IMG/VR virus record: IMGVR_UViG_2744054895_000001
Location: 1-64,000 of that record
Direction: 5' to 3' (one strand)
Length of the DNA stretch: 64,000 bases
Origin: a virus
Lineage: Duplodnaviria > Caudoviricetes
The translations under genes and the position numbers were made by a program. Each line of letters begins with the position of its first letter. Position 1 is the first letter of the stretch. The notes beneath the pieces are model-generated. The model did not search any database. It saw only the letters and a program-made list of their open reading frames with translations, and was not told the origin of the DNA. Positions 1 through 63,572 of this stretch are shown piece by piece.

Positions 1-462
1 ATGGCTCGCATCGCCTACAGCCACACCGACGGGGCCGGTTTCACCACGGGCGGCCTGTTCGAGACGGACACCGCCGAGAAGTTCGGGGGGCTGGACGTGG
101 AAGACGAGTACTCGCCGTTCCTGTCGGAGGAGCTGTACTGCACAGATCTGGGGTACTGGATTCTCAACCGCGTTCGTGCGGGCAACCCGGACACCAGCAC
201 ATACGAGAAGATCAGCGACGAACTGGCCCGCCAATGGCTACTCGACAACGAGTACCCGGAGGAGGCCAAGCGGCGCTTCGACCGCAGCAAAGGCGGACGG
301 CCGTCGAAGGGAGACAAGGTCGAGGCGCGCGTCCCCGCGAAGACCTTGAGCCGCATCGACGACATGGCCGCAGCGGCTGGGGTCGATCGGCCGGAGATGA
401 TCCGGCGGCTGCTGGTGGTGGCCGTGGGGATGGAGCGGGCCCTCGCCGCGGCGCTGGACTAG
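1..462 (+). CDS. Protein with C-terminal ribbon-helix-helix (CopG-like) DNA-binding domain
   Basis: C-terminal GGRPSKG..VEARVPAKTLSRIDDMAAAAGVDRPEMIRRLL has an RHH pattern; followed by a hairpin. Confidence 0.6.
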   Translation: MARIAYSHTDGAGFTTGGLFETDTAEKFGGLDVEDEYSPFLSEELYCTDLGYWILNRVRAGNPDTSTYEKISDELARQWLLDNEYPEEAKRRFDRSKGGRPSKGDKVEARVPAKTLSRIDDMAAAAGVDRPEMIRRLLVVAVGMERALAAALD

Positions 463-6197: not shown

Positions 6198-6671
6198 TCA
6201 CCTCCACTGGGGGCGAAGGTTGCGCAGGGCGGCGAGGCGGTCGGGGTCGGTCTTCTGCATGGCCCCGGTTCCGACGAGGCGGGTGTCAGCCGGCTGCTCG
6301 CCGTGCTGCGTCCACTTCTTGCCTCGGGCTTGGTACTCCAGGGCGGTCATCGGGTTGAAGTCGGCCGGCCACAGGTAGTCGCTCGAATCGGCGCGCTCGC
6401 CCTTGTGGACGCCGCGGGTGTAGTTCTTCTGCGCGCTGCGCATCGGCCGGCTGTTCAGGGACTGGTCGCCGAGGCGGTCACTGCGGCGGGTGTTGAGGGT
6501 GCCGAGGTAGCCGTCGGGGTATTCGGCCGTCGGTGTCCGGCCGGTGGCCATCATTCGCTTGGCGTCGAGGATGCTGCGGGCGCCAACCAGGTCGGTGCGT
6601 CCGCCTCCGCCGTAGGTGGGCGTGCCCGGCTGGGGGACGCCCATGGGCGCCACGTACTGTACGTTGCTCAC
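6198..6671 (-). CDS. Hypothetical protein
   Basis: 157-aa ORF with phage-like codon usage. Confidence 0.65.
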   Translation of the reverse strand: MSNVQYVAPMGVPQPGTPTYGGGGRTDLVGARSILDAKRMMATGRTPTAEYPDGYLGTLNTRRSDRLGDQSLNSRPMRSAQKNYTRGVHKGERADSSDYLWPADFNPMTALEYQARGKKWTQHGEQPADTRLVGTGAMQKTDPDRLAALRNLRPQWR

Positions 6672-6689
6672 TTCGCGTCCCCCGCAGGG

Positions 6690-6932
6690 TTAGTTGAAGA
6701 CGGGGTTGGTCGGGGTGGCAGCTCCGGGGGCGGCCGGGGCCGCCTCGCCACGGGACTCGCTGTGACCGCCTGCGAAGTGGGAGGCGAAGCCAGTGGTGAA
6801 AGTGCGGGCGGCGCCCCCGGCCGTAGCTCCGCCGGCAGCAGTGCCTCCAGCGGTACCTGCGGCAGCGGCACCTTCAGCGGCAGCCCCGCCCGCGACGGCT
6901 TCGACCAGTGGGGCGGCGAACGCGAACGCCAT
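6690..6932 (-). CDS. Ala/Gly-rich small hypothetical protein
   Basis: 80-aa ORF starting 3 nt after the upstream stop. Confidence 0.5.
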   Translation of the reverse strand: MAFAFAAPLVEAVAGGAAAEGAAAAGTAGGTAAGGATAGGAARTFTTGFASHFAGGHSESRGEAAPAAPGAATPTNPVFN

Positions 6933-47335: not shown

Positions 47336-47952
47336 GATCCCTCCTTGAGCTGCAACTCCACCGACACGGTCATCGCGCACCGCTGAGGAACCATCTGGCT
47401 GGTGAAGTGCGTGTATTCGATGGACAACGACGACACGTACCCGTAGTAGGAAAGGGCAGCATTCGACGTCGGGCCACCGAAGTAGAACATGCACGGAAGC
47501 GACTGCATCGGCTGGATCTTCTTCGCGTTCGCGCCCTTCGCTGTGTCGTCGTACACGCCCGTGACGTAGTAGAACGCGTCCACGTCGGCGAGGACGCCAC
47601 GGACTTCCGCGCCCTCACTGGAAACACCGTTCTTCCCGAAGCCCCCCGTCAGCTCGTACGTGCGGTCGTAGAGCAGGCTGAACGAGAGCTGCCCGATCCC
47701 GGAGGCCCCGAGATAGTTGCCGTCTGTGGAACGCTGGTCCGCCGAGAGGACCGCGCTGGCACTGTGGCTGACGCTGATCGTGGTCGGGTTGAAGAGGAAG
47801 TCCACACGGCGCCCGCTCTTGGCGGACGGGCCGACAAGCGGCGCGCCTTGCAGGATAGCTCCGCGCCAGTATGTCTGCGGGTGCCGCTGGAGGCCGAGCC
47901 GCGGAACGGATGTCATGCGGCTGTCGAACTTCGGATTGCCTTTGACTGCCAT
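47332..47952 (-). CDS. Tube initiator-like protein (contractile tail)
   Basis: F.FNP..I..S, LL.DRT.E, GY..S.S..YT.F...MVP.R motifs; between tape measure and LysM genes. Confidence 0.7.
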   Translation of the reverse strand: MAVKGNPKFDSRMTSVPRLGLQRHPQTYWRGAILQGAPLVGPSAKSGRRVDFLFNPTTISVSHSASAVLSADQRSTDGNYLGASGIGQLSFSLLYDRTYELTGGFGKNGVSSEGAEVRGVLADVDAFYYVTGVYDDTAKGANAKKIQPMQSLPCMFYFGGPTSNAALSYYGYVSSLSIEYTHFTSQMVPQRCAMTVSVELQLKEGS

Positions 47953-50900
47953 CAGACACCCACTCCCAACTGCTTGATCCGGTTGTCTGCTGCGATGTAG
48001 TCAACGACCTTCTTGGCGGCGTCAGACGCTGCCCGATCGGACATCGAGCCGTTGACGTTGATCTGAATGGCGCCCTGGGCGAAGGAGAGCGACACGCCGC
48101 CGCCGGTTCCAACGCCGCCGGAAGCGGCGGACGCTCCGGCCGGCGAGACGACGTTGACTGAGTCCTTGATGAGCGCCTGACGGATCGTTTCGGCTTTGGC
48201 TGCCGGAATGATCATCTCACCCTTGTGGACCCGGGCGTCGAGGTCCTGAGGGATCTCCCAGGCGCCGGAGGCGTACCAGTGGGGATTGCGCTTTTGCCAC
48301 AGCTCCCACGCCTTGGACGGCTTACCGTAGTCCGGCCGGCCGGCAATGTAGTCCAGACCCCATTCGATCTGTGTTGCAGGGTTGGTCCGCCAGTCCTTGC
48401 CCTTGGAGGCCATTTTCTCGGCAGGGAGGCTCTGCGCAATTCCGTACGCGCCGGAACTGGGGTTCTTCGCCTTATGGTTCCAGTTCGACTCGTGCTCCCA
48501 CAGTTGAAAGAGGGCGTCCCATTCCTTCCCTGTCCAGCCCCTCTGGGCCGCGAGCTTCTTGCCCAGAGCGACGTTGCCCTTGGGATTCGAGGGCGCGCTG
48601 GAGACGGCAGTGGAACTCTCGGCGTTGGTCGACTCCCCCGTACCACTGGTGCGTGGTCCCATCGAGTAGCCGGATCCGCGGGCCAGTGCCGCGGTTAGGG
48701 CGTCGATCTCGTTCTGGCCGATGCTGCTGCCACTGCCGCCGTACCAGCCAGCGTTCCCGGCGCCGGCCTCGTCGTCGGTCTGCTTGGTGTCCGTGTTGTA
48801 GCTGGACAGCGCGCCGACCCCGCTGGCCACCCGGCGGACCTCCTTGATCTCGCCCAAGGTGAACGACCGCACACGAACGTCCAGGCCGGTGCGCGGCGCC
48901 TCGACGAGCTTGCCGCTGCCGATCGCCATCATCACGTGGCCAGGTTCGGGGAAGAGCAGGTCACCGGGCTGGATATGCTGCTTGTCGACCTCGACGCCCA
49001 CCTTCATCTGCTGCTGCGAGGTACGCGGCAGGTTGATGCCGGCCTGCCGATAGGCCCACGAAGTCAGGCCCGAGCAGTCGAAGCCGTGCTTGGGGTCCTC
49101 GGCACCCCACACGTAGGGGACACCGACCTGACCGAGCGCAGCCTGGATCGCCGACGACGCGTTGCCGTTCGCGACGTGGCCAGCCGTGGCGCTGGACGAC
49201 TTCTCGCCGCTGGAAGACGACGATGCCGTTGCGCCGCCGGCACCACCGCCGATGTTGATGGGGAGCAGGCTCTTGCCGAGGTTCCAGAGCGACTTGATCT
49301 TGTTGATCGGCCCCTTCGTGGCGGTCGCCCATGCTCCCGAGGCGCCCACGATCTGCTTAACACCAGGCAGTTCGAGGAAGCCGTTGATCGCTGCCTCGAA
49401 CTTCTGCACCGCCTTGGTGGCGGTCTCCAGGTTGTGGGCGAAGGAGTCACCCATGACGGCGTCGTGCTGCCGTTCCTGGGCTTCGAAGGTCTTCCGTGTC
49501 TGTCCCAGGCTTTCCGAGACGCCGTACTTGGTCAGCTTCTTGCGGGCCGCGTCGCCCTTGCTGCCGGTCTGGGCAGCCTGCGCGATGAGCTCGTCGGCCG
49601 ATCCGGAGGTCATGCCAGAGTTCTTGAGGAGTGTGTTCCTCCCCCGCATGTACTCCTTCAGGTTGTCGACCGTCTCGGCGTCCCACCCGGACGCCTGTCC
49701 GAGCTGGTCGATGTTGTAGTCGAGCGCCTGGCCGCTGGCGGTGGCTGCCGCGAACTTCTTGGACGAGATGGACGTCGTTCCGAAGGTCCGCTTCATGATG
49801 CTGTCAGCGAGCGTGCCGATTCCTGCCGCCTTGCCGCCCGCACCGATGGTGCGTCCGTATCCGAGACGCTGAGCCGCCAATGATGCCTGCGGGTTGTAGA
49901 CGCCGGAGTACAGCTTGGCGCCGGTCTCGGCATCCAAGCCGGCGACGTAGGAGGCACCGAAGGCTCTCCCGCGGACAGCAGCCTGCGCAGAAGTGCCATA
50001 GGTCAGGCCGAAGTTTTTGTCCAACAGGAAGTTAGCGTTGCTCGCATCCTCTGTGGACTTCGCGACGACCATGCCGTAGCTGTGGTCGCGAATCTGGTTC
50101 TTCCAGCCCCACTTGTCGTAGCTGTTCGGGGCGCCGCCGGAAGCGATATAAGCCCAGTTGGTGTACCGGTCCATCTCTTCCATCTGCGGGCGCATGCGGT
50201 CGCCGTACTTGACCGCCTGCCCGTAGACCGCGCCCAGTGGTCCCTTGAAGTCTGCGGCCTTCTGGCTGGCGACCATGGCCGCGGCGTTCTGGCTCTCGCC
50301 AGCCGGCACCGTGGCGCCGAACCCTCCAGGGGGCGGAACAGACGAACCGTTCCCAGAGCTTCCACCTCCGCCTCGGCCACGTCCGCCGGAGTTTCCGCCT
50401 CCGAGATTGAAGACGGTGCCGTTACGGGAGGCGTAGAAGCCACTGCCGGCGACGTAGGCGCTCGACAGGCCGGTCGCCCGGTTGTAGGCCCACATCCGTT
50501 GACCGGCACGCAGACCCCACGTCGTGTGGTCCGCGGCGTCCTGCCTGCGTATCGCTTCGTCGAACAGTGACCCGTAGTAGGCGTCAGCGTTGGCCTGTCG
50601 CGCCTGAGCGACTCGGTCAGGCGTCATACGAGCCATCAGGTCCGGGTTTATCCCTGGTGTGCGGCGCTGGTGACGGGCCTGACGAGCGGCTGCACGGGCC
50701 TGGGCAGCGGCTTGCGACGCGGACATGTTCTGCGTGTACTGCTGGCTCGCTTGCGCCCCGTACGTGCTCGCCCACGCCTGCTGGGCGTCCAAACCCTGCT
50801 GGTACACCGACTGCTGCCGCTGTGCCCGAGTCTGCGCGGCCTGCTGCTGCATCTGCGCACGCATCTGTGCCCGCGCCTGGCGGGCAGCCTCACGTGCGTC

Positions 50901-51410
50901 TGCCGCTGCCCGCGACGCGGACAGATGTCCGGAAACAGCGTCGCCGTGACCGCCCCATGTCGGCTGCGCGTTGAGGATGCGCTGGGTGAACGCTTCCTGC
51001 CGAGCCGCCCGCGATGCGCCGATGCTCCGGGTGGCGTCCATCTGCGCCTGGTGGCGAGCCGCCAGACGGTCGGCGAGAGGGCCTGTGTAGACGCGGCCGG
51101 TGGTGGGATGCGTGAAGACACCGCCGGTCTGGGTGACGGTGTTCGCCGGCGGGTGGGAGATCGGTGCCGGGTTGATGCGCGTGGTTTGGTTGGCCGCTGG
51201 GAACGCCTGCGCGGGCAGTCCTCGGAAGGCCGCGCCTCGGGTGGCCGAGTTGATCGCGCCCTGGAGGGCCCGGTTGAGGGCGGTGATGTTGGCACCGAGC
51301 TTGCCGATGTCGCTGGCGACCTTGTCGGCCGCGCGCTGCATCCCATTGGTGCCAAGGAGGCGACCCCCGAAGGTGGGCTCTCCGCGGTTGATCTCGTTGT
51401 CTTCAGCCAC
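47952..51410 (-). CDS. Tape measure protein with NlpC/P60 and lytic transglycosylase domains
   Basis: Long helical protein; G.PYVWG..FDCSGL..LPRTS..PGDLLF..GHV; ES.W...A.NP.SGAYG.AQ.LP. Confidence 0.85.
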   Translation of the reverse strand: MAEDNEINRGEPTFGGRLLGTNGMQRAADKVASDIGKLGANITALNRALQGAINSATRGAAFRGLPAQAFPAANQTTRINPAPISHPPANTVTQTGGVFTHPTTGRVYTGPLADRLAARHQAQMDATRSIGASRAARQEAFTQRILNAQPTWGGHGDAVSGHLSASRAAADAREAARQARAQMRAQMQQQAAQTRAQRQQSVYQQGLDAQQAWASTYGAQASQQYTQNMSASQAAAQARAAARQARHQRRTPGINPDLMARMTPDRVAQARQANADAYYGSLFDEAIRRQDAADHTTWGLRAGQRMWAYNRATGLSSAYVAGSGFYASRNGTVFNLGGGNSGGRGRGGGGSSGNGSSVPPPGGFGATVPAGESQNAAAMVASQKAADFKGPLGAVYGQAVKYGDRMRPQMEEMDRYTNWAYIASGGAPNSYDKWGWKNQIRDHSYGMVVAKSTEDASNANFLLDKNFGLTYGTSAQAAVRGRAFGASYVAGLDAETGAKLYSGVYNPQASLAAQRLGYGRTIGAGGKAAGIGTLADSIMKRTFGTTSISSKKFAAATASGQALDYNIDQLGQASGWDAETVDNLKEYMRGRNTLLKNSGMTSGSADELIAQAAQTGSKGDAARKKLTKYGVSESLGQTRKTFEAQERQHDAVMGDSFAHNLETATKAVQKFEAAINGFLELPGVKQIVGASGAWATATKGPINKIKSLWNLGKSLLPINIGGGAGGATASSSSSGEKSSSATAGHVANGNASSAIQAALGQVGVPYVWGAEDPKHGFDCSGLTSWAYRQAGINLPRTSQQQMKVGVEVDKQHIQPGDLLFPEPGHVMMAIGSGKLVEAPRTGLDVRVRSFTLGEIKEVRRVASGVGALSSYNTDTKQTDDEAGAGNAGWYGGSGSSIGQNEIDALTAALARGSGYSMGPRTSGTGESTNAESSTAVSSAPSNPKGNVALGKKLAAQRGWTGKEWDALFQLWEHESNWNHKAKNPSSGAYGIAQSLPAEKMASKGKDWRTNPATQIEWGLDYIAGRPDYGKPSKAWELWQKRNPHWYASGAWEIPQDLDARVHKGEMIIPAAKAETIRQALIKDSVNVVSPAGASAASGGVGTGGGVSLSFAQGAIQINVNGSMSDRAASDAAKKVVDYIAADNRIKQLGVGV

Positions 51411-51576
51411 TGGAAGCCGCCGCCTCCCTTCTTCCCTTGACCCAGACCGCCAGGTCGCGCCAGTACTCACGCTCCTGGACGGTCAGGTTCTTGATCTCGC
51501 TGAGTTGCCACTCGGGGTGGGCGTAGGCGAGCGTGGTGTAGTCAGCCCGTGCTGCTCGGGCGTCAGAAATCGCGAA
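51403..51576 (-). CDS. Tail chaperone C-terminal extension (no start codon; likely reached by +1 frameshift)
   Basis: DYTTLAYAHPEWQLSEIKNLTVQEREYW frame is bounded by an upstream TAG and contains no ATG/GTG/TTG. Confidence 0.6.
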   Translation of the reverse strand, partial: FAISDARAARADYTTLAYAHPEWQLSEIKNLTVQEREYWRDLAVWVKGRREAAASSG

Positions 51577-52439: not shown

Positions 52440-52802
52440 TTACTTTATGACTGCGTAGGAATTCGGACCGTAACTGTCCGCGACCTTGAAGTCCCATCCC
52501 TCGTGCGCGAACGTGAGCTGGGAAACGGCGAATGTATTGCTTCCAGCGTCGAGGTCACCAAAGGCAACCGAGGTGGGCCAAGCGTTGTAGAGGCGCCATA
52601 CCGCCTTTACTGCTGCCTTGCTCTTGGTAACCGGGTGGTCGATGAGCATGATGTCGATCGTGGCCCGGAATTCTGAGCCGGTATCGGATCCGGATCCGTT
52701 GCCCTGCATGACGTCGAAGAGCTGGTACATCCAGTTCACGAGTTTCTGGTCGCCCGGCATCATTCCCTTGGAAAGGGTGACGGGGCTGAAGTCGCTCTGA
52801 CC
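52440..52802 (-). CDS. Tail tube protein (gp19-like), exon 2
   Basis: GQSDFSPVTLSKG...LYNAWP...DLDA...L.FAHEG; joins exon 1 to give 194 aa. Confidence 0.85.
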   Translation of the reverse strand, partial: GQSDFSPVTLSKGMMPGDQKLVNWMYQLFDVMQGNGSGSDTGSEFRATIDIMLIDHPVTKSKAAVKAVWRLYNAWPTSVAFGDLDAGSNTFAVSQLTFAHEGWDFKVADSYGPNSYAVIK

Positions 52803-53100
52803 CAGAGGCTGTTACCTCTCCGGTTTCCCGGAGCGGGCTGGTCATTTCTGCCAGCCTCTCGCATTCTCATGCGAGTTCGGACTCTATCTTCACCCCAGAG
52901 GGGTGTCCCGTACATAGTCTCTGGACCTTCCCGTCGGTTTCCCAGGCGGGCTCGGCTGCTGATTTTCCCTACCCTCGGACTTCTCAAGCCGTCGCGCTCA
53001 GGCTTTCGCCCCACGCTGTGGCGCCGAGGTCTAACAGGACGTTCCAGCAATTCTCGGGATTTTCACTCGCTACTTACGCAGCGAGGGCCCAGTCAAGTTG
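52803..53100 (-). ncRNA. Group I intron (298 nt, no homing endonuclease) in the tail tube gene
   Basis: Exon-terminal U with P1 GCCU/GGGC; P AAUUGCUGGAA, Q AAUCAGCAG, R CAGAGACUA, S AAGAUAGAGUC; terminal G; removal restores KMP|GQSDF. Confidence 0.88.
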
Positions 53101-53322
53101 AGGCATTTTCTGAGTGGTCGTGTTCATGCCGCCGGCCCTGTATGCGATGACGTCAGTCGTCACGGAAAGGCCGGAAACCGACATGAAGCCGAGCTTTGGA
53201 TAGGCAGAGGACAGCTTGCCGACCTGGCTGATCTGGACGTGGAACTTGAACGAGCGAAGGGGGTCCGTCTGTCGCGAGGCCAGGCTCTGGCTTTGCGAGA
53301 CGGTCTTGAGGGTGGATGCCAT
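53101..53322 (-). CDS. Tail tube protein (gp19-like), exon 1
   Basis: DPLRSFKF.V..GF..VSGL...YR.GG.N....KMP. Confidence 0.85.
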
Positions 53323-63129: not shown

Positions 63130-63417
63130 CAGCTCTGTTACCTCTCCCCTCAGGGAGCGGGCTGGTCATTTCTGCCAGCCTCTGCATCTTTCCCATTGAT
63201 GCAGGCCAGACTATATCTTCATCTCCAGTTCCAGTGGGCCGAAGCACCTAGCCACTGGGCCTGTTGGAGATGCCACCCGTGTAGTCGTTACGGAGTCCCA
63301 GGTGTTGGGTTCCCTCGGTATTCCCCGTGGTGACGAATGAGTGCTACGAGGAGGAGGGGTTCACCGATACAGGGCGGTTTTCACTGACAGGTCGCCCTGT
63401 CAGGCGGCCAATATCAA
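63130..63417 (-). ncRNA. Group I intron (288 nt, no homing endonuclease) in the major capsid gene
   Basis: P1 GCGGU/GCCGC; P AUCGGUGAA, Q AAUACCGAG, R GUAACGACUA, S AAGAUAUAGUC; P3 CCGCCC/GGGUGG; terminal G; removal restores FAV-KKTE. Confidence 0.9.
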
Positions 63418-63572
63418 ACCGCGAACTGCTCGAAGCGCAGGATCGGCATCGACTGGAACAGAATTTCCTTCGACCAGAGTTCCTGGATGGCCGGGGAAAG
63501 CTGCGAGTTCGCGCCGGCGTAGTTGGTCGGAGACGCCGACAGACGCGGCGTACCGGTGATGGCAGAAGCCAT
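63418..63572 (-). CDS. Major capsid protein, exon 1
   Basis: MASAITGTP...IQELWSKEILFQSMPILRFEQFA; joined product 332 aa. Confidence 0.85.

Follow-up and report, generated by a model that had tools for sequence, protein, structure and literature searches.

A group I intron in a provirus tail-tube gene and the ssrA-like tail predicted on its unspliced product

The split tail-tube gene and its intron

The stretch of DNA analysed here (the window) comprises the first 64 kb (positions 1 to 64,000) of the 94.8-kb provirus record IMGVR_UViG_2744054895_000001, a member of the Caudoviricetes whose structural genes lie on the minus strand. The tail-tube gene of this provirus, a Streptomyces prophage, is interrupted by a 298-nucleotide (nt) group I intron. 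The subject of the present work is the short peptide that a ribosome would add to the exon-1 product if it crossed the 5′ splice site of an unspliced transcript, and the resemblance of this peptide to the end of the ssrA tag that is encoded by host transfer-messenger RNA (tmRNA). Features of the window are collected in Table 1.

The identity of the gene is supported by sequence profiles and by its surroundings. The Pfam family PF06841 (T4 gp19-type tail tube; cut-off 28.2 bits) is split at the intron, with profile positions 1-45 matched by exon 1 (31.0 bits) and positions 46-133 by exon 2 (62.6 bits). A sheath gene lies directly upstream. Only three phages in GenBank, all of them Streptomyces phages, match the gene (~70% identity over 7% of the query), and in related Streptomyces phages it is annotated as tail tube protein. 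The boundaries of exons and intron follow from intron-less alleles in IMG/VR, since these read straight across the junction. Thus, removal of the intron restores an uninterrupted conserved open reading frame (ORF), in which QKMP is followed directly by GQSDF, as in all 10 related IMG/VR loci (63-99% identity in exon 2), and the 12-nt DNA junction is identical in 8 of the 10. Rfam detects no intron in these ten relatives (L001-L010), whose ORFs are unbroken. This places the 5′ splice site at 53101/53100 and the 3′ splice site at 52803/52802, the G at 52803 being the last intron base. The Rfam model RF00028 matches positions 52858..53110 over its full length (1-253) with 68.5 bits, against a gathering score of 50 (E = 2.9e-15). 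By every testable criterion the element is a group I intron; its splicing activity itself is predicted here.

Table 1. Features of the split tail-tube gene, its intron and the second intron in the window
Feature	Position	Strand	Description
Tail-tube exon 1	53101..53322	-	74 codons, ending ...TTTQKMP; collinear with intron-less homologues L001-L010
Tail-tube exon 2	52440..52802	-	120 codons and stop
Group I intron	52803..53100	-	298 nt, without internal ORF; boundaries set by intron-less alleles
Read-through tail QLDWALAA and TAA stop	53074..53100	-	first 27 intron nt
L1 loop	intron bases 1-4	-	
P10 guide TTGACT	53091..53096 (intron bases 5-10)	-	pairs with first six exon 2 bases; encodes part of L-D
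P1 internal guide GGGC	53087..53090 (intron bases 11-14)	-	pairs with last four exon 1 bases GCCT; in W and A codons
P2 hairpin	53066..53085 (intron bases 16-35)	-	stem of 8 base pairs, GTAA tetraloop
tmRNA-like 23-nt stretch	53066..53088	-	near-copy of Streptomyces tmRNA tag end, stop and hairpin
J2/3 TGAAAA	53060..53065	-	carries back-up stop codon for another frame
Major capsid gene group I intron	63182..63425	-	RF00028, 44.4 bits, E = 4.6e-8, below gathering score

An earlier reading of the DNA, made from the sequence only, had proposed that translation through the 5′ splice site adds Q-L-D-W-A-L-A-A and a stop codon. This is exact: minus-strand positions 53100..53074 continue the frame of ORF 53322..53074, an 82-residue product with the C-terminal end ...TTTQKMPQLDWALAA. 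The 27 nt that open the intron carry two kinds of information, namely L1, P10, P1 and the 5′ arm and loop of P2 and, in addition, a message that ends in Ala-Leu-Ala-Ala. The assignment of these elements is our own and is consistent with the Rfam alignment and with folding. The P10 pairing is predicted by RNA duplexfold at -6.0 kcal/mol, and its sequence is invariant in three tail-tube orthologues. P1 (-5.2 kcal/mol by duplexfold) has the T-G (U-G) wobble at the 5′ splice site, in agreement with the Rfam alignment. The P2 hairpin folds at -13.6 kcal/mol (z = -5.8), and none of 200 shuffled sequences folds as well. The residues Asp, Trp and the first Ala are contributed by the guide sequences, while Leu-Ala-Ala is encoded by the 5′ arm of P2 (53085..53078). 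The last three bases of the GTAA loop (53077..53074) form the stop codon.

The tmRNA tag end and its counterpart in the intron

The tmRNA genes of three intron-bearing Streptomyces genomes were identified with ARAGORN and encode the tags ANSKSDSRAFALAA (G002), ANTKRDSFALAA (G079) and ANTKSDNSRFALAA (G001). All three end in FALAA, as the sequence-only reading had stated for this genus; with 30 more Streptomyces tmRNAs, an [FY]ALAA end is present in 33 of 33, and the 15-nt tag end is identical in 27 of them. The last four residues of the intron tail are identical to those of the host tag, and the fifth residue from the end is aromatic in both. A C-terminal Leu-Ala-Ala is the determinant read by ClpX in Escherichia coli, and Ala tails are known to act as degrons in E. 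coli and Bacillus subtilis.

The similarity extends to the nucleotide level. When the whole intron is aligned with the whole tmRNA of G079, the best local alignment falls on the tag end, the stop codon and the hairpin, with 21 of 22 positions identical. It scores 19.5, compared with a mean of 9.2 (standard deviation 1.2) and a maximum of 15 in 300 shuffles. The corresponding 23-mer of the window, GCCCTCGCTGCGTAAGTAGCGAG, differs from its counterpart in the tmRNA of L122, GCCCTCGCTGCCTAAGTAGCGAG, at a single position (22/23 identical). This lone change, from GCC to GCG, leaves the amino acid as it is but makes a GNRA loop, GTAA, out of CTAA. When folded, the two RNAs have the same stem, and the stop codon occupies a loop of 4 nt in each. 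Given the peptide, the probability of choosing the same four codons by chance is ~3.5e-3. A degenerate 22-mer describing this element occurs three times in the ~30 Mb of genomes G001, G002 and G079, namely in two tail-tube introns and in one tmRNA, and its reversed control does not occur in the same sequence. P2 is thus a near-copy of a tmRNA hairpin at the nucleotide level; this match and the longer host-like tails of related introns described below constitute evidence beyond what the sequence-only reading had offered. On these comparisons, the intron would be a mimic of tmRNA or a captured tmRNA fragment, and the resemblance may go back to capture or to convergence. The possibility that the element is itself a tmRNA gene was rejected: RF00023 matches nothing in the window or elsewhere in the record of 94.8 kb, and only 22-23 nt are held in common with tmRNA.

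Related introns and their tails

Orthologues of the split gene were found by exact-sequence look-up of the 82-residue product, its 90% cluster and a neighbouring cluster being considered. These contain nine distinct exon-1 products (81-82 residues; from Streptomyces genomes and IMG contigs) beside full-length intron-less forms of 193-198 residues. An eight-residue tail is present in 9/9 exon-1 products: QLDWALAA in two, RIDWALAA in five and RIDWALTA in two. The earlier expectation that homologous introns keep the peptide was thus borne out, ALAA being retained in 7 of 9 tail-tube orthologues. The DNA of orthologous introns comes from G001 and G002 only, in which the gene is 92% and 90% identical to that of the window; the two ALTA orthologues are known as protein only. 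Compared with the window, the tails in G001 and G002 differ at two L1 positions (giving QL or RI) and, in one of them, by a synonymous change of GCT to GCC.

The intron is distributed sporadically. It is absent from the 10 IMG/VR relatives and was found in 1 of 401 sampled Streptomyces genomes (G001); G079, also among the 401, carries related introns without the tail-tube P1-P2 part. Metagenome scans for the tail-tube intron returned 0 stretches, and so did a viral scan with a pattern of guide plus J2/3. Nothing similar to the intron was found among GenBank phages (best E-value 0.3). In G079, two introns (L083, L084) are both located in one capsid gene; they have 80-83% identity with the core of the tail-tube intron (its bases 34-292) but different P1-P2 regions. 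Such an arrangement is consistent with movement of the core from site to site, guide and tail being built anew. It should also be noted that in an intron-bearing Streptomyces genome the annotated exon-2 protein (P0026) begins inside the 3′ end of the intron (MTSPLRETGEVTEL...). Each half of that split gene has a database entry of its own as a "phage tail protein", and public annotation thus does not recognise the intron.

A second set of relatives was retrieved with a pattern that specified the guide and J2/3-P3 but put no condition on P2. It comprises eight capsid-gene introns, all of which follow ...REHALA and lie behind an exon end ...TGCCT, as in the tail-tube gene. Their tails end in WALAA in seven of the eight loci and in WALTA in one; ALAA is accordingly kept in 7/8 capsid paralogues. 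Across 11 sequences (these eight and three tail-tube introns), 97.2% of P2 cells are paired. Two compensatory pairs, at columns 10-25 and 13-22, coincide with the third positions of the Leu and penultimate Ala codons, which vary between CTC and CTT and among GCT, GCC and GCA, respectively. Synonymous variation, for which the sequence-only reading had suggested looking, is therefore present and is accompanied by compensating changes in P2. The distance from splice site to guide is 8 or 11 nt at the phase-1 capsid exon and 9 nt at the phase-0 tail-tube site, so that the tag frame is kept in 11 of 11 sequences. In this same-guide clade, 8 of 9 distinct sequences have a stop codon ahead of P3 in every frame; thus, a need for an early stop alone would not demand the tag frame. 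This pattern of ALAA retention, third-position variation and frame maintenance may reflect either an ssrA-type tag or constraint on the RNA, since all the codons overlap P10, P1 or P2; ALTA variants also occur.

Four tails copy more of the ssrA tag, and they do so with different codons. FSAKRQDSFALAA is found at the capsid site ...LDFG in L060 and L083, LQRDTFALAA and LRRDTFALAA at the capsid site ...KYAAPG in L043 and L210, respectively, and RRDFALAA in a different capsid type (L212). The tail of L083 can be compared with the tag of its own genome, G079: FSAKRQDSFALAA and ANTKRDSFALAA are identical at 9 of 10 aligned residues, with one inserted Gln. Most third codon positions differ between the two, and Ser is encoded by AGC in the tail and by TCC in the tag. 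RNA structure alone does not predict copies of 8-10 tag residues in other codons. In L083 and L060, ~33 nt separate the capsid splice site from the guide, and the insertion in L1 encodes AKRQDSFA. By eye, this insertion could form a hairpin of 7 base pairs (GCGAAGC with GCTTCGC), in which the arms encoding A-K-R and S-F-A are complementary.

The tail-tube intron belongs to a wider family in actinobacteriophage genomes. The 3′ parts of the tail-tube and capsid introns of the window are nearly identical and have in common a 21-nt P9 motif, which occurs at 77 places in 67 IMG/VR stretches (L011-L077). A capsid gene may contain several such introns: at least five were seen in the L043 gene, and three apiece in those of L049 and L062. 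The tails of most of these introns end in Ala-Ala. Rfam at its gathering score recovers only 15 introns in 32 loci and misses many members that have the P9 motif. A junction census was based on two core landmarks and a frame rule (no stops in the 150 nt upstream, GC content at third codon positions (GC3) of at least 0.7 and at least 0.1 above that of the other frames). Of 79 landmark sites, 30 were left out with their frame unresolved, and the rest correspond to 37 distinct junctions: 26 end in Ala-Ala, five in another residue followed by Ala, five otherwise, and one has no early stop. A hand count of insertion contexts gives ~12 with an Ala-Ala end and ~8 without. Introns that do not have the sequence landmarks are partly covered; for these, tentative frames give FAA (L022), KAA (L063) and LAA (L076) and ends other than Ala-Ala in L023, L030, L036, L052, L058 and L059.

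These frequencies exceed the background. Stop-to-stop ORFs of at least 30 codons in random frames of the window and the viral loci end in Ala in 9.9% of cases and in Ala-Ala in 1.7% (215/12525), a background that includes intron-adjacent ORFs. The latter are separated in a count of the gene-like ORFs of these sequences, of which 11/27 that abut an intron core end in Ala-Ala, compared with 10/269 others (Fisher p = 8.5e-8). In the commonest type of junction, which reads GGCCGCC followed by TGA or TAG, the stop codon comes after the guide and forms the beginning of P2. A frame-blind scan for this element returned 14 distinct sequences; the coding frame reads Ala-Ala-stop in 13 and is ambiguous in one, while a second frame also stops early in all 14. 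The lengths of L1 that could be read by hand in sequences of this type (6, 9, 18, 24 and 33 nt) are all multiples of three.

Analogous tails are found in Cluster J mycobacteriophages. Introns of these phages, for which efficient splicing during late expression is reported in passages of PMC3706429, show 73-74% identity over ~160 nt to the core of the capsid intron in the window. Annotated genes read through the splice site to give ...SVATAAA in the LittleE capsid gene (L091, ~1418-1456) and ...SDDLAAAAA in the Baka minor tail gene (L092, ~1417-1455), and in both the TAA lies in the GTAA loop of a P2 of 8 base pairs.

Explanations for the tail and comparison with known systems

In our opinion, these data are best accounted for if the intron encodes in cis a mimic of the ssrA tag end, by which the unspliced product would be degraded by the proteases that clear tmRNA-tagged proteins; we assign this reading a probability of about 0.6. 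Ribosomes trailing RNA polymerase into an unspliced transcript would translate 24 nt of the intron and terminate at the TAA of the P2 tetraloop, before reaching the catalytic core. An 82-residue N-terminal fragment of the tail-tube protein, resembling an ssrA-tagged protein, would then be released, and ClpXP and any other protease that clears ssrA-tagged proteins would be expected to degrade it. In this way the selfish intron might spare the cell a truncated subunit of a polymerising structural protein, which would presumably be harmful. We infer that the tail may have been selected for tagging. The suggestion of the sequence-only reading that the P1/P2 region doubles as a tag is supported in that each computational test able to refute it came out in its favour.

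A broader proposal, for which we see about even odds, is that the introns in actinobacteriophage structural genes (capsid, tail tube, minor tail and others) have evolved cis-encoded mimics of the host ssrA tag as a family. At their shortest, these mimics would consist of Ala-Ala alone and, at their longest, of 8-10 host-like residues; they would follow the 5′ splice site in frame and precede a stop codon in or at P2. In one clade, P2 would be a captured or convergent copy of the tag-end hairpin of Streptomyces tmRNA. Truncated products would be handed to ribosome-rescue proteolysis, and such self-cleaning could let selfish ribozymes persist in highly expressed, assembly-sensitive genes.

Several observations weigh against a selected tag, and they are best considered together with a rival explanation, namely that the tail is a by-product of RNA structure and of selection for an early stop. 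On this view, phage group I introns need an in-frame stop close behind the 5′ splice site so that ribosomes do not enter the core; with the stop in or at P2, the GC-rich guide and stem preceding it would happen to read as Ala, and the product, though without a selected role, might still be degraded. According to passages of a review (PMC3073962), an in-frame stop follows directly on the 5′ junction in most group I introns. Every codon of the tail overlaps P10, P1 or P2, so that conservation of the peptide is confounded with constraint on the RNA. In the commonest family type, the two Ala codons read GCCGCC without variation, wobble positions included, at many different insertion sites, an indication that the guide sequence constrains the RNA. 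The ALTA end in two of nine tail-tube orthologues and in one of eight capsid paralogues is another such case: in L043 it results from a G to A change at the first position of the Thr codon, the A pairs as A-U in P2, and we infer the same pairing for the two tail-tube products. Retention of pairing in these variants favours RNA pairing over tag quality. As the sequence-only reading had pointed out, the capsid intron of the same prophage has a TGA directly after the splice site and adds no tail; its exon-1 ORF (63414-63572, minus strand) encodes a 52-residue product that ends ...EQFAV, without a tag. Other introns of the family also stop at once and add no tail, and 11 of the 37 census junctions do not end in Ala-Ala. 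Members of the family are related by descent, so the counts given above overstate the number of independent events. Duplex energies of P1 and P10 are no better than those of shuffled guides, and an Ala-Ala tail is present in none of the four non-actinobacterial relatives checked. Finally, L032 contains a group I intron (6544-6798, minus strand; 56.2 bits) preceded by a frame with a GC3 of 0.85 and a 416-codon open stretch; this coding frame enters the intron 228 nt before the first stop, an apparent exception to early termination unless the phase differs. For all this, a by-product leaves unexplained the match to tmRNA at 22 of 23 positions together with the shared codon choice, the copies of 8-10 tag residues in other codons, including AGC instead of TCC for Ser, the use of the tag frame in 13/14 and 11/11 sequences when other frames also stop early, and the L1 lengths in multiples of three. 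We regard this explanation, the main alternative to a tag mimic, as unlikely.

A related alternative would place the selection on the hairpin itself. An ancestor of the clade may have captured, or converged on, the tmRNA tag-end hairpin for a reason at the RNA level, such as a very stable P2 with a stop in its loop or a favourable termination context, and the peptide would have come along. The similarity does span the 3′ arm of the hairpin as well as its coding arm, the folds of the two RNAs agree in their stem and in the 4-nt loop that contains the stop, and the one difference creates a GNRA loop, a typical element of tertiary contacts in group I introns. Any stable hairpin would do, however, and there is no evident reason for that of tmRNA; moreover, GGCCGCC-TGA introns with an unrelated P2 still end in LAA, and some introns copy more of the tag at the peptide level only. 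In view of these facts the alternative appears improbable, and distinctly more so than a structural by-product. Pure chance, which the sequence-only reading had kept in play on the ground that Ala codons are common at high GC content, is disfavoured to the point of being negligible. Although Ala codons are indeed common and random-frame ORFs do end in Ala or Ala-Ala at the rates given above, the recurrence of the tails, the tmRNA match at 21 of 22 positions when set against shuffles, and the longer mimics lie far beyond those rates.

A protein-level function of this kind, added to a group I intron, is apparently undescribed. Literature searches found no paper that describes an ssrA-like or degron tail, or mimicry of tmRNA, encoded by a group I intron, in keeping with the earlier statement that no description was known. 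Several known systems nonetheless share parts of the proposed arrangement. Bacterial and phage group I introns, such as that of T4 td, have an early in-frame stop and yield a truncated exon-1 product (passages of PMC3073962 and PMC8565351). The intron studied here is like them in that unspliced translation would end within the first intron helices and give such a product. The role described in those passages is only that of keeping ribosomes off the ribozyme core, whereas the eight codons that lead up to the stop here read as the end of the ssrA tag; a degradation signal on the truncated product is not mentioned in the passages of PMC3073962 and PMC8565351. The closest conceptual precedent is HAC1 of budding yeast, in which the product of the unspliced messenger RNA carries an intron-encoded C-terminal degron that serves as a fail-safe (10.1101/066118). 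In both cases an intron-encoded tail marks the unspliced product for degradation, this being predicted for the present intron. HAC1 differs in that it is eukaryotic, is spliced non-conventionally in the cytoplasm by Ire1 and depends on ubiquitin; it involves no self-splicing ribozyme and no mimicry of a rescue tag.

The introns of Cluster J phages resemble those described here in their related cores, in the interruption of actinophage structural genes, in Ala-ending tails and in a stop codon within a GTAA loop; they differ in the genes interrupted and in the host genus. The terms "stop codon", "truncated" and "unspliced" each have 0 occurrences in the searched passages of PMC3706429. Compared with tmRNA tagging and ClpXP proteolysis, the likeness consists in the ALAA end, the aromatic residue at -5 and the near-identical nucleotides and hairpin around the stop. 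Unlike a tmRNA tag, which comes from trans-translation on a stalled ribosome, the intron tag is encoded in cis and would be made in the course of ordinary translation that terminates normally. In bacterial ribosome-associated quality control, a C-terminal run of Ala residues added by RqcH marks an incomplete polypeptide for ClpXP. The tails made by RqcH are untemplated and are added on split 50S subunits, whereas the tail described here has the intron as its template.

Should the tail prove to act as a degron, it would add a protein-level layer to the ways in which self-splicing introns limit the cost to their host. It would also help to explain the presence of introns in the most highly expressed, polymerising phage proteins, including capsid genes that carry three to five of them. 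A single short sequence would then combine the functions of ribozyme guide, helix and degradation signal, and a mobile intron may have borrowed a piece of host tmRNA. Intron-based genetic switches in which the OFF state must be tight might also be designed on this principle.

Downstream of the tail-tube gene lies an ORF (47952-51470, minus strand) of 1172 residues with long Ala/Gln-rich repeats and a C-terminal part that resembles a cell-wall hydrolase; it probably encodes the tape measure protein.

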